A DNA stretch of 64,000 nucleotides from an uncultured Candidatus Saccharibacteria bacterium (GCA_964517625.1 CAZFBW010000002.1:25893-89892); one strand, 5' to 3'. Counted from the stretch's first letter, positions 14,814-44,187 are shown. Made by a program: numbers and translations. Notes: generated from the sequence alone by a model not told the origin.

Positions 14814-15152
14814 ATGCCACCAACCACTCCTACACCAACTACACCGAAGAACAACACCAGTAAACTGGTCATTGAGATTGTCGCAGGACTTCTTGTTCTT
14901 GTTGTCGGGTATTTTGGGTACACAATGTTTTCTGATAGTTCTGCTTCTACGCAAGCGGTATCTAATGTACAACTTGGTAAAAATTTATCTAGCTTTGCAA
15001 AAGAAAGCAAAGGAATTAGTTTAGACTTCTCAATTCTCGAAACAGCGTATGTTAAAAGTCTCGAAGACCACACACAAATCTTTACGTATTCAACAAGACG
15101 CGGTCGTTTAGATCCGTTCTTGCCTTATGATTCTACTAGACCTATTCGTTAG
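14814..15152 (+). CDS. hypothetical single-TM protein in pilus locus (possible PilP-like)
   Basis: Pro/Thr-rich N-terminus, TM LVIEIVAGLLVLVVGYFGY; overlaps the pilB start by 26 nt. Confidence 0.35.
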   Translation: MPPTTPTPTTPKNNTSKLVIEIVAGLLVLVVGYFGYTMFSDSSASTQAVSNVQLGKNLSSFAKESKGISLDFSILETAYVKSLEDHTQIFTYSTRRGRLDPFLPYDSTRPIR

Positions 15153-16866
15153 CCAGAATAAGCTCACCGATCTTGAGGCAAAAGAAATCGAAGCAGACCT
15201 TCACGACCACGAAGGGACAGTAATCGATGATTTGCTCAAGGCGAAAAATATAACTGATGATGATATTCTTCAGGTTCGTTCGGTGTTGTATGGCTTACCT
15301 ATTTTTTCTGGGAAAATTTCACAAGATGTATCGCTCACAAAATATTTAAATAAACAACAGTCTCGTCAGTTGATGGCACTTCCGCTTTCGATGGATGACA
15401 AGATGCTCTCCGTTGGTATTGTTGATCCAGAGTACGCGCACGTTCTCGACAGTCTTCAATTTTTGTTTGGACCATCACACCAGGCGTATAAGTTGTATCT
15501 CATTAGTTATCAGGTGTATAAAGACACGCTTGGTATTAAAGGGAAACAAGAAAGTCTTGCCGAACAAGTTGACGAAGAGGGGGATCAGTTGAGTTATGTT
15601 GCCAAAGAAGGGGACATCAACAAAAAACAACAGGAAGAGGAAGACGTTGACTTGTCCTCCGTCAACCCGGACCTTGACCAGGAGCTTACTAAGATGCAGG
15701 CGCCGGAGATTTTCAGCACCATGCTTCGTTATGCGATTGATAACGGTGCCAGCGACATCCACATTGAACACGTGGGGACGGCGGTGCGTGCGCGTATTCG
15801 TATTGACGGTGTACTCGATACCGCAACTACGCTTCCTGCAAAGCACCACTCTTCACTTCTTGCTCGTATTAAAATTCTTTCCGGTATGAAGCTTGATGAA
15901 AAACGAAAACCGCAAGACGGACGTTTTAGTACAAAAATCGGTGAACGCGCTATCGACTACCGTGTGTCGACATTCCCTGGGTATTACGGAGAAAAGGTGG
16001 TAATCCGTATTTTGGACAGTTATCGAGGTGTGCGTGATATTAAGACTATTGGACTTACGGAATCAAATATGGCTGCGATTAATGAAGCGCTCGGTGTTTC
16101 ATATGGTATCATTCTCATTTCTGGCCCGACCGGTTCTGGTAAAACAACCACACTGTATTCAATGTTAAACGAAGTAGACCGTGACCATCAAAACGTGGTT
16201 TCTCTCGAAGACCCGATCGAATATAACATGCCTTCTATGAACCAGTCTCAAGTGTTTCCAGAAATTGGATACACGTTTGCTTCAGGTCTTCGTTCTATCT
16301 TGCGTCAGGACCCGGATGTAATTATGGTGGGAGAAATTCGTGACGTCGAAACCGCAGAGCTCGCCATTCAAGCGGCGCTTACCGGTCACTTGGTGTTCTC
16401 TACCATCCACACCAACACGGCAATTGGTGTTATCACGCGTTTGCTCGACATGGGTATTGAACCGTATCTTATTGCGCCAACCATCAAACTCGCCATGGGT
16501 CAGCGTTTGGCGCGTACTATTGTGGAAGGGTGTGCTAAGCCAATGAACATGACTGCTGGACTAAAAACAATGATAGATAATCAGTTTAAAGATTTGCCGA
16601 TGACATATAAATCAAAGTTACCGCTCGATAAGCCGTTCCATGAAGCAGTTGCGTCCGAAAAGAGTCCGACAGGGATTAAAGGCCGTATGCCGGTATTTGA
16701 AGTGCTTACTTTTACTGAAGAAATTCAGGAAGCGGTAACACTCAGAAAAAGTGAAGACGAAATCTGGAAACTGGCTCGTGCCCAAGGGTACATGACGCTC
16801 AAGGAGGACGCAATCATTAAATGCATTGAAGGAAGAATTCCGTTCATTGAACTTGCGGCACTTTAA
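15127..16866 (+). CDS. pilB: type IV pilus assembly ATPase PilB (GspE family)
   Basis: Walker A GPTGSGKTTT, His-box, GSPII_E N-terminal domain; 579 aa. Confidence 0.9.
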   Translation: MILLDLFVSQNKLTDLEAKEIEADLHDHEGTVIDDLLKAKNITDDDILQVRSVLYGLPIFSGKISQDVSLTKYLNKQQSRQLMALPLSMDDKMLSVGIVDPEYAHVLDSLQFLFGPSHQAYKLYLISYQVYKDTLGIKGKQESLAEQVDEEGDQLSYVAKEGDINKKQQEEEDVDLSSVNPDLDQELTKMQAPEIFSTMLRYAIDNGASDIHIEHVGTAVRARIRIDGVLDTATTLPAKHHSSLLARIKILSGMKLDEKRKPQDGRFSTKIGERAIDYRVSTFPGYYGEKVVIRILDSYRGVRDIKTIGLTESNMAAINEALGVSYGIILISGPTGSGKTTTLYSMLNEVDRDHQNVVSLEDPIEYNMPSMNQSQVFPEIGYTFASGLRSILRQDPDVIMVGEIRDVETAELAIQAALTGHLVFSTIHTNTAIGVITRLLDMGIEPYLIAPTIKLAMGQRLARTIVEGCAKPMNMTAGLKTMIDNQFKDLPMTYKSKLPLDKPFHEAVASEKSPTGIKGRMPVFEVLTFTEEIQEAVTLRKSEDEIWKLARAQGYMTLKEDAIIKCIEGRIPFIELAAL

Positions 16867-27936: not shown

Positions 27937-29325
27937 ATGTATTCGCTTAATCTCGACTACCTGTTTAATCGCGTCTACGATGTACTTCTCTGGATGAAGT
28001 ATGTTTGGCTTTTTGTTTTCTTGCGAAAAAATCCGGAAGACTACTTAGCAGAGAATGTTGGTAGAGAGTGGGATGGTTTGCGCGACAGGGGATGGTTTAA
28101 CGATTATTTTGCTACAAAAGATGCCGCAGCAAGCGCAGTTTCTAATGAAACTACCTGGCAAAAAATTCTTCATTTGTTTGGTATTAAAGATAGAGACACC
28201 GATGGCGATGGTATTTCAAACATTGTTGATAGTAAGCCATACGACCCCAACAATTTGACGCAAGCGCAACTGAAAGAACGCTTTGAGCAAGATTATACAT
28301 TTGGCGATAAAGTACGCGACCTGTTTGGACTTGCTCCGAAAGATACTGATAGGGATGGCGTACCGGACAGTTATGAAAAGGCGCATGGGCTTAATCCAAA
28401 TCAAACCGATACCGATCGAGATAATTCAAGTGACGGGCAAGAATTGACTGTTGGCACTGACCCACTTAATAATGATACTGATAGAGATTTAATACTTGAT
28501 GGACGCGATGAAGCACCGCTTGATGGGAAGGTTTCTTCAATTGGACAAGATACCGATGGCGATGGGGTAAGCGACAGATTGGAAAATCTTTTGGGGACAA
28601 ATATTGAAAACAGGGATACTGACGGCGATGGCATTCCAGATGGTATGGATACGTATCCGACCGACCTCAATAACGACGGAACGTATGCGCTTCCAGATTT
28701 CGGACAAGCTCTTGATGGATTACAAACATCAATTCGCAACCCGGTACTTGCTTTTGTTTCTGATATGTTTTCGGTGATGGCAGTTATTGCGCTCTGTTTT
28801 TTTGTGGTTATCATCATGATGTGGGTGATTAAGTTTTGGAACTCACTCAATAAGTACGATGAACATTTTGTGCAAGAGGAAGAGGAAAAGCAAAAAGAAA
28901 AACCCGAAGAAAAATATGGAGGTGAACATATCGGCATTCCGGGACTTGCGGTTTCTGAAGATGTGACCTTCTCAGAGGAGATACCAGTACCACCACCATC
29001 GAATGAAGAGTTCGAAAGCCATCCACGTTGGGCAATTGTTGAAGGATATATGTCGTCAAACGTTGAAGCGTTGTGGAGAATCGGTATTATCGAGGCGGAC
29101 AACATGCTCCGTGAAGTGTTAGCAGAAAAAGGATATGCAGGAGAAGATGTCGGCGAGATGCTCATGACGGCAAAGTTTAAGACGGTGCAGTTGGCGTGGG
29201 ATGCACATTTGGTGCGGAATAAAATTGCTCACGAAGGGTCAAACTATACCTTGACCGCTCGCGAAGCGAAAAGAGTCTTTGCTCTCTATGAGTCTGTATT
29301 TTTGGAATTAGGAGCGATTCAATAA
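27937..29325 (+). CDS. membrane protein with six thrombospondin-type-3-like Ca-binding repeats (DTDGDG/DTDRDG), internal TM helix and C-terminal cytoplasmic domain
   Basis: Repeats DTDGDGISN, DTDRDGVPD, DTDRDNSSDGQE, DTDRDLILDGRDE, DTDGDGVSD, DTDGDGIPDGMD; TM AVIALCFFVVIIMMWVI; sits where gatB is normally found. Confidence 0.5.
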   Translation: MYSLNLDYLFNRVYDVLLWMKYVWLFVFLRKNPEDYLAENVGREWDGLRDRGWFNDYFATKDAAASAVSNETTWQKILHLFGIKDRDTDGDGISNIVDSKPYDPNNLTQAQLKERFEQDYTFGDKVRDLFGLAPKDTDRDGVPDSYEKAHGLNPNQTDTDRDNSSDGQELTVGTDPLNNDTDRDLILDGRDEAPLDGKVSSIGQDTDGDGVSDRLENLLGTNIENRDTDGDGIPDGMDTYPTDLNNDGTYALPDFGQALDGLQTSIRNPVLAFVSDMFSVMAVIALCFFVVIIMMWVIKFWNSLNKYDEHFVQEEEEKQKEKPEEKYGGEHIGIPGLAVSEDVTFSEEIPVPPPSNEEFESHPRWAIVEGYMSSNVEALWRIGIIEADNMLREVLAEKGYAGEDVGEMLMTAKFKTVQLAWDAHLVRNKIAHEGSNYTLTAREAKRVFALYESVFLELGAIQ

Positions 29326-37745: not shown

Positions 37746-38888
37746 GTGGTAAAATGGGTGTGTATGTCACTAATACTAGGAATTTTGGGCGGACTTGTTG
37801 GGATTATTATTATCGGAGGAATTATCGCCTTAGGGTACAGCGCTGTGTCTGGAAACCAAGGCAACAATCTTATGGAAAATAAAATAAAAGCACTTGATGT
37901 ATTCGTATACTTGGGTATTTTTATTACCCTTGTTGTTTCGGTAACAAATCTTTTACAAATTATATTTGCAGCAGTTAATCGTAAATTTGTCGATTTGCTT
38001 GACTACCAAGGAGTGATGGATGTTTACAATAGTGATGTTCGTTTTGCAATCGCATCGCTTGTCGTGGTGTATCCAATTTACGTCGGTCTCTCATGGTTTG
38101 TTGCGAAAGATATCGTCAAGAATCCTTACAAGCGTGATTTGAAGATTCGTAAAATCATGATTTATGTGGCACTCTTTGTCACGCTTTGTACACTTGTCGG
38201 AACGCTCGTTTCTATTATTTATACCTATTTAGGTGGCGAGCTCTCTGTTCGCTTTGGGTTAAAAGCGGTTGCGGTATTTGCAGTAGCGCTTACGGTGTTT
38301 GGATACTATTTGTTTTCACTTCGTCGCGATTATGCACAAAAAACATATATTCCGCACATATTTACTATTGGTGTAACACTCGCAGTTGTGGTTTCACTGG
38401 TGTGGAGTATTTCAATTGTTGGTACGCCAGGAGAAATGCGTATGAAGCGAATAGACAATACCCGTCTCTCGGATATTTCTCGTCTTCAACAAGAAGTTTT
38501 CAACCACTTCCAGGGAGCAGACAAACTTCCAGCCAATCTCGCAGAATTAAATGATGCTTTTCAAGGGTACTCTGTTCCTGTAGACCCGGTCACGAAAGAA
38601 AATTATGTTTACAGAGTAGTGGAGCAACCAGTAATGCGAATGAATTATACGACCAACAAAAAAGAGATGGCAACTAATGCTGTATTTGAATTGTGTGCAA
38701 CGTTTGACACCAAACGCGCAGTTGATTCTCGTGGAATGCAGATTGTCGGTAAGGGTGGAGCAACAGATGTTATGTATTCTGTAGCAAATTACTACAACGA
38801 ATATGACCAGTCACCATTTTGGAACCACGAAGCGGGAGAGACATGCTTTAAGCGTATTATCACTCCGGATATGTACTACGGTCGCTAG
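37746..38888 (+). CDS. hypothetical polytopic membrane protein with C-terminal extracytoplasmic domain
   Basis: ~6 predicted TM helices in the first 230 aa, soluble C-terminal 150 aa. Confidence 0.4.
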   Translation: MVKWVCMSLILGILGGLVGIIIIGGIIALGYSAVSGNQGNNLMENKIKALDVFVYLGIFITLVVSVTNLLQIIFAAVNRKFVDLLDYQGVMDVYNSDVRFAIASLVVVYPIYVGLSWFVAKDIVKNPYKRDLKIRKIMIYVALFVTLCTLVGTLVSIIYTYLGGELSVRFGLKAVAVFAVALTVFGYYLFSLRRDYAQKTYIPHIFTIGVTLAVVVSLVWSISIVGTPGEMRMKRIDNTRLSDISRLQQEVFNHFQGADKLPANLAELNDAFQGYSVPVDPVTKENYVYRVVEQPVMRMNYTTNKKEMATNAVFELCATFDTKRAVDSRGMQIVGKGGATDVMYSVANYYNEYDQSPFWNHEAGETCFKRIITPDMYYGR

Positions 38889-39065: not shown

Positions 39066-41489
39066 ATGAGCATGTACGATTTCAAGACAATTGAAGAATA
39101 TTGGCAGAAAAAGTGGGGTGAACAGCAAACCTACAAAACAGGTGAAGATACGTCTAAAGAAAAAATGTATGTGCTCGGCATGTTTCCATACCCCTCAGGT
39201 GAGGGGCTTCATGTGGGCCATGCACGAATCTTTACGGCTAGCGATATCTACGCGCGCAAAAAGCGAATGGAAGGATACAATGTTTTGTTTCCAACAGGAT
39301 GGGATGCATTTGGACTTCCCGCAGAACAGTTCGCGATAAAAAACAAAATTCATCCACGTATTTCAACAGATAACAATGTAAACAACTTCAGACGTCAGAT
39401 GAAGATGCTTGGGCTTTCGTATGATTTTAATCGCGAAGTGGATACTACTGACCCCGCATACTACAAATGGACGCAGTGGATATTTTTAAAGATGCATGAG
39501 AAAGGGCTTGCCTTTGAATCGTACGACCCGATTAATTGGTGTCCATCGTGTGAGACTGGACTTGCTAACGAAGACTTGGAAGCTGGAAAATGTGAGCGCT
39601 GTGGAACAGTTGTTGAAAAAAAGAAGATGCGCCAATGGACGCTTCGTATTACTGACTATGCAGAACGATTACTTAATGATTTAGATACGCTTGATGCATG
39701 GCCGGAGTGGTTAAAAGCTCTAGAGCGTAATTGGATTGGAAAATCAGAAGGAGCAGAATTTGATTTTGAATTAGTTGATGCACCGGCGAAGAGTGTGAAG
39801 ATTTTTACAACGCGTCCAGATACCTTATTTGGTGCAACGTTTGTCGCAATTTCTGCCGAACTTGCTGATGAGTGGTTGAAAAATGGATGGGAGGCAGAAG
39901 AAGATATTCATGAGTATGTCACAAAAACGCTTGTTGAACAGAAAGAAGTTTTAGAGCACGGTGCCGAACGCGAAAAGACAGGAATATTTTCTGACATCTA
40001 TGCAATCAATCCAACCACAAAAGAAAAAATCCCTGTTTGGATTGCAAACTATGTATTAGGTGGTGTAGGAACAGGGGCGATTATGGCGGTGCCTGCACAT
40101 GACGAGCGCGATTTTGAATTTGCTTTCAAATATAACATTCCAATCAAAGAGGTTGTTGTAAGCGAGAAAAGCACATTACCAGAGAAGGCATTTGTTGGTG
40201 AAGGAACACTTATTAATTCCGAAACATTTGATGGAATGAAAAGCGAAGAAGCGAAACACAGAATCACTGAACACTTTAAAGGAACACCTGTAACACGCTA
40301 CAAGTTGCAAGATTGGGTATTTTCCCGCCAGCGCTACTGGGGTGAACCAATCCCAATGGTGCATGACGAGGACGGGAAGGTGTATCCACTTGATGAAAGT
40401 GAGCTACCGCTCACACTTCCACAGGTAGAGCATTACGCTCCCTCAGGAACTGGAGAAAGTCCGCTTGCAACGATTGCCGACTGGGTAAACGTCAAAGGCA
40501 TCATCACAGAGAAGGGGACATTTAAACAGGATGTTCATGGAAAAGTATTTAAGCGCGAGACAAATACCATGCCCCAGTGGGCGGGTTCTTCATGGTATTA
40601 TTTGCGTTTTGCGGATGCACACAATGAAAAAGAGTTGATTTCATCCCAAGCGGAACAATACTGGCAACCGGTTGATAGGTATGTGGGTGGCGCAGAACAC
40701 GCAACACGTCACCTGATTTATGCGCGCTTTTGGCATAAGTTTTTGTACGATATCGGTGTTGTTTCTCATTCCGAACCATTTCTTACCATGGAATCGGTCG
40801 GCCTTGTTCTTGGTCCTGATGGCCAAAAAATGAGTAAGCGTAGAGGAAATATTGTAAATCCAGACGATGTGGTAAATGTTTGGGGTGCAGACACCGTGCG
40901 CATGTATTCTGCGTTTATGGGTTCATTTTATGATGCAACACCATGGAACCCGGACGCAATTATCGGATGCCTTCGTTTTTTGGAAAAGGTTTGGAAGATG
41001 AAGGATTGGGTTGTTCCAGAAGAAGTTACTTCACTTGAAGCGCCACTTCACAAGACAATTAAAAAAGTTACTGACGATATTGAAACATTTAAGTTCAACA
41101 CTGCAATTTCTTCAATGATGATTTTTATAAATAATGTTGATGGTGAAAAGCGTATCGGAAAGGATGCATGGAAGGTGTTTGTAAAAATGCTTGCACCGTT
41201 TGCACCGCATGTGGCGGAGGAATTGTGGAAAGAAGCAGGCGAGAGTAATTCAGTGCACCTTTCGGTATGGCCAACATACGATTCTGCTAAAACTATAGAC
41301 AGTGAAGTAACGCTCCCGATTCAGATTAACGGTAAACTTCGCGGAACATTCGTTGCTTCTTTTGATGCAAGTGATGAGGTCATCACAGAGGCTCTCAAAA
41401 CGACCGAAACCTACCAAAAATATGTGGGGGAAGGGGTCCCGAAAAAGGTAATCATCATCAAAAATCGCCTTGTCAATGTGGTGATTTGA
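39066..41489 (+). CDS. leuS: leucine--tRNA ligase
   Basis: HVGHARIF (HIGH) and KMSKRRGN (KMSKS) motifs; 807 aa. Confidence 0.95.
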   Translation: MSMYDFKTIEEYWQKKWGEQQTYKTGEDTSKEKMYVLGMFPYPSGEGLHVGHARIFTASDIYARKKRMEGYNVLFPTGWDAFGLPAEQFAIKNKIHPRISTDNNVNNFRRQMKMLGLSYDFNREVDTTDPAYYKWTQWIFLKMHEKGLAFESYDPINWCPSCETGLANEDLEAGKCERCGTVVEKKKMRQWTLRITDYAERLLNDLDTLDAWPEWLKALERNWIGKSEGAEFDFELVDAPAKSVKIFTTRPDTLFGATFVAISAELADEWLKNGWEAEEDIHEYVTKTLVEQKEVLEHGAEREKTGIFSDIYAINPTTKEKIPVWIANYVLGGVGTGAIMAVPAHDERDFEFAFKYNIPIKEVVVSEKSTLPEKAFVGEGTLINSETFDGMKSEEAKHRITEHFKGTPVTRYKLQDWVFSRQRYWGEPIPMVHDEDGKVYPLDESELPLTLPQVEHYAPSGTGESPLATIADWVNVKGIITEKGTFKQDVHGKVFKRETNTMPQWAGSSWYYLRFADAHNEKELISSQAEQYWQPVDRYVGGAEHATRHLIYARFWHKFLYDIGVVSHSEPFLTMESVGLVLGPDGQKMSKRRGNIVNPDDVVNVWGADTVRMYSAFMGSFYDATPWNPDAIIGCLRFLEKVWKMKDWVVPEEVTSLEAPLHKTIKKVTDDIETFKFNTAISSMMIFINNVDGEKRIGKDAWKVFVKMLAPFAPHVAEELWKEAGESNSVHLSVWPTYDSAKTIDSEVTLPIQINGKLRGTFVASFDASDEVITEALKTTETYQKYVGEGVPKKVIIIKNRLVNVVI

Positions 41490-41505
41490 CGAAAATTGGT
41501 ATTTC

Positions 41506-41514
41506 TGGTAGTAT
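41506..41514 (+). promoter_or_regulatory. extended -10 TGGTAGTAT
   Basis: Lies inside ORF-track start 41496; supports the downstream ATG at 41532. Confidence 0.4.
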
Positions 41515-41531
41515 GTACCCACACTAAAAAC

Positions 41532-42560
41532 ATGCCTGGAATAACCTTTAAACCAAAAGCCATTTCGAAAAAGCTCTTGACAGCGCTTAATCCGCGTACT
41601 AAAGAGATTGTTATTAACCGTTACGGTCTAGAAAATGCTGAAAGAATGACTCTTGAAGCAATCGGTAAGACGTACGACATTACTCGTGAGCGTGTTCGTC
41701 AGATTGAAAATTTTGCCCTTACGACTATTAAGAAGTCAAAGGAGTACAAAGAACACGCCTTCATTTTCGATGAACTTAAATCCATCTTAAAAGATCTTGG
41801 TTCAGTTGTATCTGAAGAGCACCTCATGCAGACCATCTCCAAAGATCCGGTTATTCAAAACCACATCAACCTTTACCTCGCACTCGGGGAAGAATTTACA
41901 AAGCACAAGGAAGATGAGCACTTCAATGCACACTTTAGTATTGATGACAAAGTTTCAGGCCATGTTCGCGACGCTCTCCACAAACTCTACGCATCTATTA
42001 GCGAAGAGGATCTCATTAAAGAAGAAGAAATTTACGAACGCTTTGTCGGACATCTTTCAGACGCTGTTGGCGAATACAAGCAGAATAAATCAATTATTAA
42101 TCTTTACCTTGCGCTTTCAAAAGTTATTGGCAAGAACCAATTGAACGAATGGGGCAGACTTTCTTCTCCACACGTTAAAGCTCGCGGTATCAAGGATTAT
42201 GCATACCTTATTATGCGTCGCAAGGGTGAACCAATGCACTTTAAAGAAGTAGCGCTTGAAATCAATAAGACATTCGGCAAGAAAGCACATGTTGCAACCT
42301 GTCACAATGAACTCATCAAAGATTCACGCTTTGTACTTGTTGGACGCGGTATGTACGGACTTAAGGACTGGGGACACACAGGTGGCGTCGTTCGCGATGT
42401 TATCAAGCAAGTACTCAAGGAAGCAGGACGTCCGCTTTCAAAAGATGAAGTTATTAAGCGCGTACTAGGAAAGCGCATCGTTAAGCCAAACACGGTTTTG
42501 GTTAACCTCCAGAATACGAAGTTTTTCAAGAAAGTTGCTGGTGAATATACAGTCGCATAA
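41532..42560 (+). CDS. sigma-70 region-4-like HTH plus C-terminal HARE-HTH domain protein
   Basis: N-terminal TLEAIGKTYDITRERVRQIENFAL (sigma region 4.2 pattern); C-terminal PMHFKEVALEINKTFGKK...SRFVLVGRGMYGLKDW (HARE-HTH pattern as in RNAP delta). Confidence 0.5.
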   Translation: MPGITFKPKAISKKLLTALNPRTKEIVINRYGLENAERMTLEAIGKTYDITRERVRQIENFALTTIKKSKEYKEHAFIFDELKSILKDLGSVVSEEHLMQTISKDPVIQNHINLYLALGEEFTKHKEDEHFNAHFSIDDKVSGHVRDALHKLYASISEEDLIKEEEIYERFVGHLSDAVGEYKQNKSIINLYLALSKVIGKNQLNEWGRLSSPHVKARGIKDYAYLIMRRKGEPMHFKEVALEINKTFGKKAHVATCHNELIKDSRFVLVGRGMYGLKDWGHTGGVVRDVIKQVLKEAGRPLSKDEVIKRVLGKRIVKPNTVLVNLQNTKFFKKVAGEYTVA

Positions 42561-42561
42561 C

Positions 42562-42589
42562 AAAAAATCGGGGAATACCCCGATTTTTT
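42562..42589 (+). terminator. rho-independent terminator (A6-TCGGGG-aata-CCCCGA-T6)
   Basis: Seen directly. Confidence 0.6.
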
Positions 42590-42628
42590 GTTGGTACACA
42601 GTGTGCATAAGCACGCTTCGCAATTGAC

Positions 42629-42637
42629 TGGTATACT
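42629..42637 (+). promoter_or_regulatory. extended -10 TGGTATACT
   Basis: 20 nt upstream of the ATG at 42658. Confidence 0.4.
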
Positions 42638-42657
42638 AGAGGACATATATAGAGCAT

Positions 42658-44187
42658 ATGCAATTTTTAATTGATAGTATCCTCATTCTTTCATATGGCG
42701 TAGCCCTCCTTTTTCTACTTGCCTGGTCATGGCGTCTTTGGATGATGTATGTGAATCGACAGTTTATTGATAAATGGGATAAAGACTCACTTCTCTTGGA
42801 AATACGTCTTCCACGAGAAATTTTCAAATCTCCTCTTGCTGCTGAAACAGCTCTTTCATCACTTATTCAGGGGGGGTCTGTGGGTGACTGGTGGGCAAGA
42901 AATTGGTCAGGTAATCTAACTGCGTGGTCATCGCTTGAAATAGCTTCAATTGAGGGTGTGGTGCGTTTCTATATCCGTATTAATAAGAAATTTCGTCCAC
43001 TTGTTGAATCAAGTTTCTATGCTCAGTATCCAGGCATTGAAATTGTTGAAGCCGATGATTATACAAAGATGGTTCGTTATACTCACCTGAATGAAGATAT
43101 CGGACTTTTTGGTTGTTCGTTTTGGCTTGCGAAAAAATGGGGTGTAAAGGATAAGTACGGAGAACCACTTAAGAAGGGTAAGGATCCATATCAAATGCGT
43201 GCAGATTTTTTTCCAATTAAGACGTATGTTGATTATGGTCTCGACAAAGATCCGAAAGAAGAATTTAAAATGGACCCAATTACGCCGATGATTGAATTCA
43301 TGGGATCGATCGGTAAAGGTGAGTACTTTTGGTACCAAGTTCTTGTGCAAGCAGAAGGTCCTTTTGATGGTAAAAAGTTTCCAAAAATGTTCTACAACGA
43401 AGTAACGGGTGAACGACTTTCAATTTCTGACATGGTTAAACAATGGAAGGCGCAAATGAGAATTGGAAAAGTAAAAAAAGCAGGCGAGGTTGCAACTGAT
43501 AAATACGGCAACGAGGAGACAAAATCAACCGGTAAGAAGGATAGCAACGATGCGCCTATTTTAGAGGTGGTACGATATAAAAAAGATCAAATTGACACGC
43601 GAAGCGAGCTTGATTTAACTAAAGATGAACGAGACGAGATTGAATTCGTTAATAAAAAAATGGCTAAGCCACTTGTAAGAACAATTTCTAGACTTCTTTA
43701 CATTGTTGATAATAAGCGAGGGAAATTTAATCCTGGACATATTCAGACTACACTTGCGGCGATGAAGCCATTTTCTGGTGTGAATAGTTTTGCGCTTGAA
43801 ACAACTGACCCATACACCTATCCATGGCAAAAACTTGGAGATAAGCGTGTTCATTGGCGAAAGGAGGAGAAATTTAATGCCTTTGTTGAGCGCTCTGGTT
43901 TTCATCCAATTATTCCAGAAAAAAATGACAGCGAAGGAATGGATTCGCTTGATTGGTGGGAAGATGGATTCTTTTATCCGTACGAGACGAAATACCGTAT
44001 TATGTTCCGCACGCTCTACGAGACTATTTTCCATCCGTTTAGATTATATTCAAACAAGGAGATAAGTGTGCTTAATTTGGAAGAATTAGCAACACTGTGG
44101 CACCTTCCAGGTGCGGTTGCAACAACACCAACACTTCCACGTATTGATAGTACGAAAGGGGTAGCGCCAGTTAATTTGCCTCAATAA
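42658..44187 (+). CDS. hypothetical membrane-anchored protein (509 aa), conserved-looking, unknown function
   Basis: N-terminal TM ILILSYGVALLFLLAWSW; Trp/Tyr-rich soluble domain; no family recognised. Confidence 0.45.
   Translation: MQFLIDSILILSYGVALLFLLAWSWRLWMMYVNRQFIDKWDKDSLLLEIRLPREIFKSPLAAETALSSLIQGGSVGDWWARNWSGNLTAWSSLEIASIEGVVRFYIRINKKFRPLVESSFYAQYPGIEIVEADDYTKMVRYTHLNEDIGLFGCSFWLAKKWGVKDKYGEPLKKGKDPYQMRADFFPIKTYVDYGLDKDPKEEFKMDPITPMIEFMGSIGKGEYFWYQVLVQAEGPFDGKKFPKMFYNEVTGERLSISDMVKQWKAQMRIGKVKKAGEVATDKYGNEETKSTGKKDSNDAPILEVVRYKKDQIDTRSELDLTKDERDEIEFVNKKMAKPLVRTISRLLYIVDNKRGKFNPGHIQTTLAAMKPFSGVNSFALETTDPYTYPWQKLGDKRVHWRKEEKFNAFVERSGFHPIIPEKNDSEGMDSLDWWEDGFFYPYETKYRIMFRTLYETIFHPFRLYSNKEISVLNLEELATLWHLPGAVATTPTLPRIDSTKGVAPVNLPQ

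Follow-up and report, generated by a model that had tools for sequence, protein, structure and literature searches.

The window analysed here is a stretch of 64,000 nucleotides from an uncultured Candidatus Saccharibacteria bacterium, in which a gene of 342 codons lies among housekeeping neighbours. The gene order is leuS, the gene studied here, a gene for a 509-aa protein, YceG/MltG, an RNase-T-type exonuclease and MnmA. The features discussed below are as follows (positions are counted from the first nucleotide of the window).

41486..41514, plus strand: promoter, identified from sequence, a consensus scan and conservation upstream of orthologues.
41532..42560, plus strand: coding sequence of a 342-aa protein with a sigma-70 region 4 and four predicted winged helices, stop codon counted.
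41553..41753, plus strand: domain 1 (aa 8-74), sigma-70 region 4 (4.1 and 4.2) of group-1/2 type; TRERVRQIE is its -35 recognition helix.
41754..41942, plus strand: domain 2 (aa 75-137), predicted divergent acidic winged helix; AlphaFold2 (AF2) secondary structure H-E-H-H-E-E, aligned by hhalign to domain 3.
41943..42167, plus strand: domain 3 (aa 138-212), predicted divergent winged helix; AF2 model, aligned by hhalign to domain 5.
42177..42380, plus strand: domain 4 (aa 216-283), a HARE-HTH winged helix of canonical form, from Pfam.
42384..42557, plus strand: domain 5 (aa 285-342), predicted C-terminal basic HARE-like winged helix; AF2, hhalign and a weak HARE-HTH match.
42561..42595, no strand assigned: intrinsic terminator hairpin, A6-TCGGGG-AATA-CCCCGA-T6, directly 3′ of the stop codon.
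42658..44187, plus strand: conserved downstream gene and candidate partner; its 509-aa product belongs to the DUF8128 family, is membrane-anchored and has a fold like the N-terminal domain of VirB4.

The ORF begins with ATG at 41532 and ends with TAA at 42558-42560, and an identical 342-aa protein is already held by NCBI (P0001, 100%). A mechanical ORF list gives an alternative, longer ORF that starts with TTG at 41496. This codon falls within the promoter. Orthologues in the databases have 342 aa and the N-terminus MPGITFKP, in line with the ATG at 41532.

The promoter comprises a -35 hexamer TTGACG (41486-41491), a 17-bp spacer and a -10 hexamer TAGTAT (41509-41514), the latter extended to TGgTAGTAT by a TG at 41506-41507. 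Promoter-like matches in the region are not in excess of expectation (4 observed, 3.7 expected from shuffles), and the credibility of the site comes from its conservation in relatives and not from the frequency of consensus matches. The pattern TTGAC-17-TAG(T/A)AT is kept in non-coding DNA 5′ of the orthologues at loci L001-L011, L051 and L053, with variable surrounding bases. At the other end of the gene, RNA folding gives the hairpin a stability of -23 kcal/mol (z = -6.59), which was equalled by 0 of 200 shuffles. A consensus terminator scanner reported none at 42561-42595, since the T-run pairs with the A-run and so becomes part of the stem. The hairpin is symmetric and could thus potentially act in both directions. 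An extended -10 promoter and a terminator belonging to this gene had been proposed by an earlier, sequence-only reading of the locus, and both are borne out by these data. Having both, the gene is a self-contained transcription unit.

Domain architecture and predicted fold

Pfam places Sigma70_r4 (PF04545) at aa 16-68 (E 1.1e-13, with 50.9 bits where the gathering cut-off is 24.1) and HARE-HTH (PF05066), modelled as a winged helix, at aa 220-280 (E 4.4e-12, with 46.7 bits where the cut-off is 25.9). These are the two domains, one N-terminal and one C-terminal, that the sequence-only reading had named, and the profile searches recovered both rather than a known family in their place. Searches of the PDB by sequence, with the single protein or with a 72-member profile, found only region 4 of group-1/2 sigma factors (RpoD/SigA/RpoS), in the case of the profile with an E of about 1e-20 over 70-75 residues. 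Neither Pfam nor NCBIfam matched sigma region 2 (Sigma70_r2) or region 3 in the 342-aa protein, and no RNA polymerase alpha-CTD was detected in it with Pfam. Matches in NCBIfam were to the region-4 ends of RpoD, RpoS and MzaA, together with a model of RNA polymerase delta that scored below its cut-off.

By E-value, MzaA of the MZA anti-phage system is the best match in both NCBIfam and PADLOC. The match covers the region-4 segment only (58 of 726 profile positions, 648-705) and scores 62 bits where 800 are required; no other MZA genes lie nearby. Being partial and far under the cut-off, it was rejected as an identification. Likewise, we do not regard the protein as a component of a defence system, given that PADLOC matches only this part of MzaA and finds no match to the neighbouring gene.

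AlphaFold2, given 72 diverse members of the family, yields an exceptionally confident model (mean pLDDT 97.0, pTM 0.88) with five HTH-type units, of which residues 75-342 make up four winged helices. When sub-alignments were compared with hhalign, domain 2 was related to domain 3 (P 86.5%, E 4.6e-6), domain 3 to domain 5 (P 93.1%, E 3.2e-7) and domain 4 to domain 5 (P 88.5%, E 2.7e-6); no link of the winged-helix domains to sigma-4 was found by this method. Searched against Pfam in isolation, domain 2 has no match, domain 3 has nothing significant (the best being HTH_48, E 0.19) and domain 5 has a weak HARE-HTH match (E 0.0037). The nature of domains 2 and 3 is therefore taken from AF2 and hhalign and not from Pfam. 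The roughly 200 aa between the two Pfam domains had been called uncharacterised. This holds as far as Pfam is concerned, yet AF2 and hhalign place two more winged helices there. As modelled, the protein is a sigma-4 domain followed by four HARE-type winged helices in tandem, and in our favoured account the four pack together as a single rigid body. Overall the protein is basic (pI 9.4), with sigma-4, domain 4 and domain 5 basic and domains 2 and 3 acidic; the folded winged helix at aa 286-342 has a pI of 10.35. Domain 4 and region 4.2 are its most conserved parts.

The RNA polymerase delta subunit (RpoE) of Bacillota offers one comparison. The delta model (TIGR04567, RNAP_delt_lowGC) scores 37.0 bits against the protein, below the cut-off of 42. 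Moreover, delta consists of a HARE-HTH and an acidic disordered tail, whereas the C-terminus here is folded and basic, and with four extra domains the protein is about twice the size of delta. Aravind and Iyer reportedly noted in 2012 that HARE-HTH occurs in bacterial proteins combining features of the RNA polymerase alpha subunit and of sigma. The present protein would share with those a HARE-HTH and a sigma-derived HTH; no alpha-CTD was detected in it.

The sigma-4 domain and the -35 element

The sigma-4 domain was aligned to region 4 of E. coli sigma-70 across 72 family members (alignment A1) of 32-58% identity to the query, with the -35 contacts as reported by Campbell et al. 2002 and from well-known specificity mutants. 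Residues equivalent to R562, T572, L573, R584, E585, R586, R588 and Q589 are invariant in 72/72 members. The equivalent of T583 is T in 71 of the 72 and that of R554 is R or K, while conservation is lost at the position of K593, which contacts activators and the backbone. Judged by sequence, the invariant pattern is characteristic of primary-type sigma factors, and it argues that the domain would still recognise a TTGACA-like hexamer. The family provides a case in which the module that primary sigma factors use to read the -35 element is kept fully intact outside a sigma factor.

Set beside the sigma-70 family as a whole, the protein shares the region 4 HTH and its -35-reading residues (the equivalents of R584, E585, R586, R588 and Q589). 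However, it lacks regions 1.2, 2 and 3, and so has no core-binding or -10 melting module. Region 4 is N-terminal here and C-terminal in sigma, four winged helices follow it, and the K593 equivalent is lost as a conserved residue. Without a core-binding and -10 melting module the protein cannot act as a sigma factor, in agreement with the sequence-only reading, which held that this is not a standard one.

One family member bears directly on the idea that the protein is nevertheless a sigma factor, or the half of a split sigma that gives region 4 in trans to a sigma without it. P0266 (766 aa, found on two contigs; locus L060) is a continuous ORF containing sigma regions 2, 3 and 4 and a complete copy of the family protein, and that copy carries a second region 4 of its own beside that of the fused sigma. 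With the sigma part of P0266 we retrieved further sigma factors from Patescibacteria/Paceibacterota (P0465, P0472 and P0495), all of which have r1.1, r1.2, r2, r3 and r4. The retrieved sigma factors thus have a region 4 already, which speaks against the supply of a missing one. Only the primary-type region 4 speaks for a sigma or split-sigma role; regions 2 and 3 are missing and the remaining domains are winged helices. We consider such a role scarcely credible and already effectively refuted.

Distribution and conservation of the family

At least 8000 homologues share words with the protein in a word-indexed search. The best 120 of these are 80-100% identical to it, all carry both Pfam domains and 115 are exactly 342 aa long; the named sources among the best 120 are Patescibacteria, Paceibacterota, Parcubacteria and Nomurabacteria. 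The names given to homologues in databases are ‘HARE-type protein’ and ‘sigma factor-like helix-turn-helix DNA-binding protein’. An exhaustive search of 50%-identity representatives returned 557 clusters at E<=1e-30, nearly all of them full length (330-400 aa). Moreover, when one genome per GTDB species was scanned with patterns from the single sequence, 59 loci were found, all in Patescibacteria-type MAGs except for two on short contigs that are probably mis-binned. With the same five-domain layout and full-length collinear similarity, the protein belongs to an unnamed Patescibacterial family that, as found, is essentially confined to Patescibacteria/CPR. The locus had been read as possibly encoding a CPR-specific transcription or DNA-binding factor. 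The distribution upholds the first part of that description, and a role as transcription factor stays conjectural. Within the window, tblastn returned the gene itself only, and neither a paralogue nor rpoD was found.

Viral sequences contribute little to the family. Among 2.9 M viral contigs only three matches resemble the full-length protein (37%, 27% and 23% identity), the remainder being phage sigma region 4. On this basis, and given the housekeeping context, we reject a phage or mobile origin.

Compared over related loci, the protein exceeds LeuS in mean conservation by 15 identity points, its DUF8128 neighbour by 24 and YceG by 22; MnmA and the RNase-T-like exonuclease are conserved to the same degree. 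It thus ranks among the best-conserved proteins of its neighbourhood. At one locus (L002), for example, LeuS is 49% identical and the sigma-4/winged-helix protein 83%. Patescibacteria (CPR) account for a large share of bacterial diversity, and most conserved proteins there have no known role. A large CPR-confined family that is more conserved than an aminoacyl-tRNA synthetase very likely has a central one.

It is possible, although we would not call it probable, that this role is that of a general transcription factor associated with RNA polymerase. The sigma-4 domain would dock on the beta-flap tip and/or read -35 elements, the delta-like HARE-HTH would contact RNA polymerase or upstream DNA, and initiation would be modulated genome-wide. 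The protein would then be a delta-like factor, a sigma-competitor or a -35 co-reader, and its adjacency to DUF8128, described below, would represent frozen synteny. Such synteny is not implausible in CPR, as leuS and yceG-mnmA stay adjacent within sub-clades. A polymerase-associated factor better accounts for the extreme conservation, which exceeds that of LeuS and resembles core machinery, for the delta-like HARE-HTH and for a primary-sigma-type region 4 that matches RpoD/SigA/RpoS at E of about 1e-20 with its -35 contacts invariant. It would also account for the complete sigma fused in frame to a family member on the two contigs of L060, and for L225 (59% GC), where ParB, a 455-aa sigma-70-type gene, a family member and an ECF-like sigma fragment follow in that order. 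The strong, conserved sigma-A-type promoter and the terminator of the gene point the same way. However, sigma linkage is seen in these 2 loci only and the protein has no delta-like acidic tail. Moreover, these bacteria have a complete RpoD with its own region 4, so that a second flap-binding sigma-4 must compete with it. Were the protein nonetheless bound to polymerase, the basal transcription apparatus of CPR bacteria would have a component specific to them.

Genomic context: DUF8128 and an orphan ATPase

The 509-aa protein encoded downstream in the window has no match in Pfam, but is a relative of DUF8128 over its full length (BLASTP E 3e-36 and 8e-26). In three distant family members (33-35% identity) the gene lies in the order SecD, SecF, gene, DUF8128 (PF26449), followed by a TrwB_AAD_bind/DUF87/TraG-D_C ATPase that has weak NCBIfam matches to TraD, VirD4 and CedD. 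The ATPase half of this arrangement is absent from the window. To count linkage, 80 diverse metagenomic loci were fetched with the family alignment and 144 loci in all were scored with home-made HMMs; the counts refer to the 121 loci with >=700 bp downstream, which span 30-100% identity. The next gene on the same strand is DUF8128 in 93/121 loci and a single ORF fusing DUF8128 and the ATPase in a further 12 (105/121 together). In 5 loci DUF8128 or the fusion is 1.3-3.3 kb away and in 11 neither is present. In the fused ORFs (880-1167 aa) the DUF8128 part covers about aa 5-380 and the ATPase part about aa 380-900, from which we take the two to be one functional unit. The gap between the gene and DUF8128 has a median of 90 bp and is <=60 bp in 36 of 120 loci. 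The other flanks vary: LeuS, SecDF, TopA or BipA may lie upstream, and YceG or the ATPase may follow DUF8128. Loci without DUF8128 have TopA, GyrB, UvrA or ParB as neighbours. No relaxase, oriT or other T4SS genes were found nearby, the context being one of chromosomal housekeeping genes.

A 2025 survey reported 5,713 VirD4-like coupling-protein (T4CP) genes in 2,918 genomes of Patescibacteria, just 148 of the genes being near virB4 and relaxases being rare; its authors suggested that the coupling-protein genes have been exapted, derived the Patescibacterial T4SS from monoderm conjugative elements and mentioned no sigma or HTH partner (PMC12102498). The pairing described here, with a VirB4-NTD-like protein and a VirD4-like ATPase, is a first concrete partner lead for these orphan genes.

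We tentatively favour, at somewhat less than even odds, a reading in which the protein is a multi-HTH, sequence-specific DNA-binding partner, recruitment subunit or regulator of the orphan secretion-type ATPase. Here we infer DNA binding, the motif that is recognised and the physical or regulatory link to the ATPase. The sigma-4 head would recognise a hexamer like TTGAC(A), with further contacts to flanking DNA and/or to protein coming from the winged helices. The protein would cooperate with the machine encoded downstream, that is the membrane-anchored VirB4-NTD-like DUF8128 and the TraD/VirD4-like P-loop ATPase, as its DNA-recognition or recruitment subunit, and may control its expression as well. 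Consistent with this, DUF8128 or the fusion remains the next gene in 105/121 loci while the genes upstream and further downstream change, often at a short distance (<=60 bp in 36/120), and the survey finds thousands of VirD4-like genes far from virB4 and without relaxases (PMC12102498). The protein itself fits as well, having Sigma70_r4 and HARE-HTH above their cut-offs, a five-HTH fold with repeats at P 86-93%, invariant equivalents of the -35 contacts in 72 members and a basic charge (pI 9.4).

There are known precedents for such a division of labour. TraM and TrwA serve the coupling proteins TraD and TrwB, the gamma domain of FtsK reads KOPS and the wHTH of Streptomyces TraB reads clt repeats. 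The likeness would be one of function only, namely an HTH or wHTH module linked to a membrane-associated P-loop ATPase. The protein has no sequence relationship to TraM, TrwA or FtsK-gamma, and its setting is chromosomal, without relaxase, oriT or T4SS genes.

Several observations count against the DNA-recognition partner. Conservation far above that of DUF8128 (+24) and LeuS (+15) would be less expected of a dedicated accessory subunit than of a core factor in information processing. Within the window, the gene is uncoupled from DUF8128 by a strong terminator and by a separate promoter, and the ATPase half is missing; moreover, the partner is not nearby in 11/121 loci. CPR genomes keep long synteny of unrelated genes (LeuS, YceG, MnmA), and adjacency is therefore weaker evidence than usual. 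Lastly, the strict sigma-70 -35 residues, the L060 fusion and the sigma-flanked copy in L225 point to promoters and RNA polymerase. However, a general role with RNA polymerase leaves unexplained why DUF8128/ATPase lies downstream in about 87-91% of the 121 loci when other neighbours change. Given this near-invariable module downstream, we rate a role tied to the machine no lower than a general one in transcription.

The same gene order could reflect regulation alone. The protein would then activate or repress the DUF8128-ATPase operon and take no physical part in the machine; it may have come with a conjugation module of monoderm type that was later domesticated. In favour of this, the survey above traces the Patescibacterial T4SS to monoderm conjugative elements. 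Elements of this kind carry small sigma-region-4-like regulators, such as Orf7 of Tn916. Moreover, every domain is of HTH type and in many loci the regulator would come first, with the structural genes on the same strand at short gaps. Against this, five DNA-binding-type domains without a sensor domain would be atypical for a local regulator, and conservation above LeuS and far above the target genes would not be expected. In the lineage of the window the ATPase has moved away, and yet the protein is still 80-90% identical. No conserved operator-like repeat was found upstream of the gene in 135 loci. An inverted repeat at the promoter, GTCAA-N9-TTGAC, was considered as an autoregulatory site and rejected, as it occurs in only 5/135 loci and its left half lies within the coding end of leuS. 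We therefore hold a purely regulatory role to be quite unlikely.

A protein with multiple HTH domains might also organise the chromosome by binding at many sites, as a nucleoid-associated protein independent of both RNA polymerase and the ATPase. This would suit a basic multi-HTH protein of very high conservation, and where DUF8128 is absent the neighbours include TopA, GyrB, UvrA and ParB; the family member at L225 has an extra C-terminal DnaA domain-IV HTH. However, such contexts are few and consist of ordinary housekeeping genes. TTGAC-containing hexamers are depleted in the window, and TTGACA is rarer there than a dinucleotide model predicts (24 observed, 61 +/- 8 expected). As a binding signature this is weak, because under an order-4 Markov model the depletion is largely gone (rank 68, z -1.6). 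The linkage to DUF8128 would also be left unexplained, and we regard a nucleoid role as very unlikely.

The DNA-recognition partner, to return to the favoured reading, can be put in a more specific form, in which a detached sigma -35 head within a five-HTH adaptor directs an orphan VirB4/VirD4-type ATPase, anchored in the membrane, to promoter-like TTGACA hexamers. In this full form we consider it unlikely, though worth stating for what it would imply. If the protein is indeed an adaptor, it would belong to a new chromosomal, relaxase-independent machine for handling DNA, in uptake, export or chromosome processing, that employs sequence recognition of the transcription type. The coupling-protein genes called ‘exapted’, of which Patescibacteria have thousands, could be accounted for in this way.

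Both Pfam domains and the domain-named database entries were already known, and the family is an uncharacterised one built from known modules. In the literature searched, no paper dealt with the family, with its architecture of four winged helices or its conservation, or with the linkage to DUF8128 and the ATPase. To our knowledge, there is no earlier description of the HARE-type repeat in four copies, of the CPR distribution or of the DUF8128/ATPase link. The sequence-only reading had passed over the fifth HTH domain after the HARE-HTH, the high conservation and the VirB4/VirD4-like ATPase module downstream. One further fusion was seen among the family members, in which the protein is joined to SecF (P0166); this simply reflects the adjacency of SecF.

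Sigma-linked members of the family

Two loci on other contigs place homologues of the 342-aa protein beside sigma factors or fused to one:

L060, 6001-8301: fusion of a complete sigma factor (r2, r3, r4), in frame, to a full family copy
L225, 1052-4198: family member amid sigma genes

The L225 member has a DnaA domain-IV HTH as an additional domain. It is flanked on one side by a gene of sigma-70 type and on the other by an ECF-like sigma fragment, and ParB lies upstream; the GC content of its source organism is 59%. Close family members also lie on two short contigs, L030 and L057, labelled Chitinophagales and Pseudomonadales, and many of the family-carrying TPA assemblies bear the label 'uncultured Candidatus Saccharibacteria'. 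These three labels probably stem from mis-binning or from generic names, and not from a true spread beyond Paceibacteria-type CPR.

Signals between the 342-aa protein gene and the DUF8128 gene

Two elements occupy the interval downstream of the 342-aa protein gene:

42561-42595: terminator hairpin, a perfectly symmetric A6-stem-loop-stem-T6, 3′ of the 342-aa protein gene
42595-42660: putative promoter, TTGACT + 16 bp + TATATA, 5′ of the DUF8128 gene

Judged from its symmetry, the hairpin could terminate transcription in both directions. Hairpins of this A6/T6 type are overlooked by a consensus terminator scanner because the stem absorbs the T-run. The TTGACT-16-TATATA arrangement before the DUF8128 gene failed the promoter scanner's rule, which demands a T at position 6. 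Only about 6 nt separate TATATA from the DUF8128 ATG, a spacing which hints that the transcript may be leaderless or have a very short leader.

Hexamer usage in the window

The window as a whole holds 24 copies of TTGACA, where dinucleotide shuffles predict 61 +/- 8; this places TTGACA 6th in depletion among 2080 hexamers, and counts are low for every TTGAC-containing hexamer. With an order-4 Markov model as background, TTGACA is only modestly depleted (rank 68). Avoidance of spurious -35-like sites could account for it. Also among the most depleted hexamers of the window are GATC-containing words (ATGATC, AGATCA, CGATCA), TTCGAA and AATT-containing words. This pattern suggests restriction-site avoidance in this lineage, directed at GATC- and TTCGAA-specific systems.

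Other genes of the window

Three further genes were annotated:

15127-16866 (+): PilB/GspE-type T2SSE ATPase
27937-29325 (+): 462-aa protein with bacterial thrombospondin type-3 (TSP3) repeats
37746-38888 (+): DUF5671 protein

The ATPase, typical for CPR genomes, fits the presence of a cluster for type IV pili or competence within the window. The TSP3-repeat protein is possibly a surface or adhesion protein. The DUF5671 gene is conserved in position, since 17 related loci likewise have it two genes upstream, ahead of leuS; its product is a further conserved CPR protein without assigned function.
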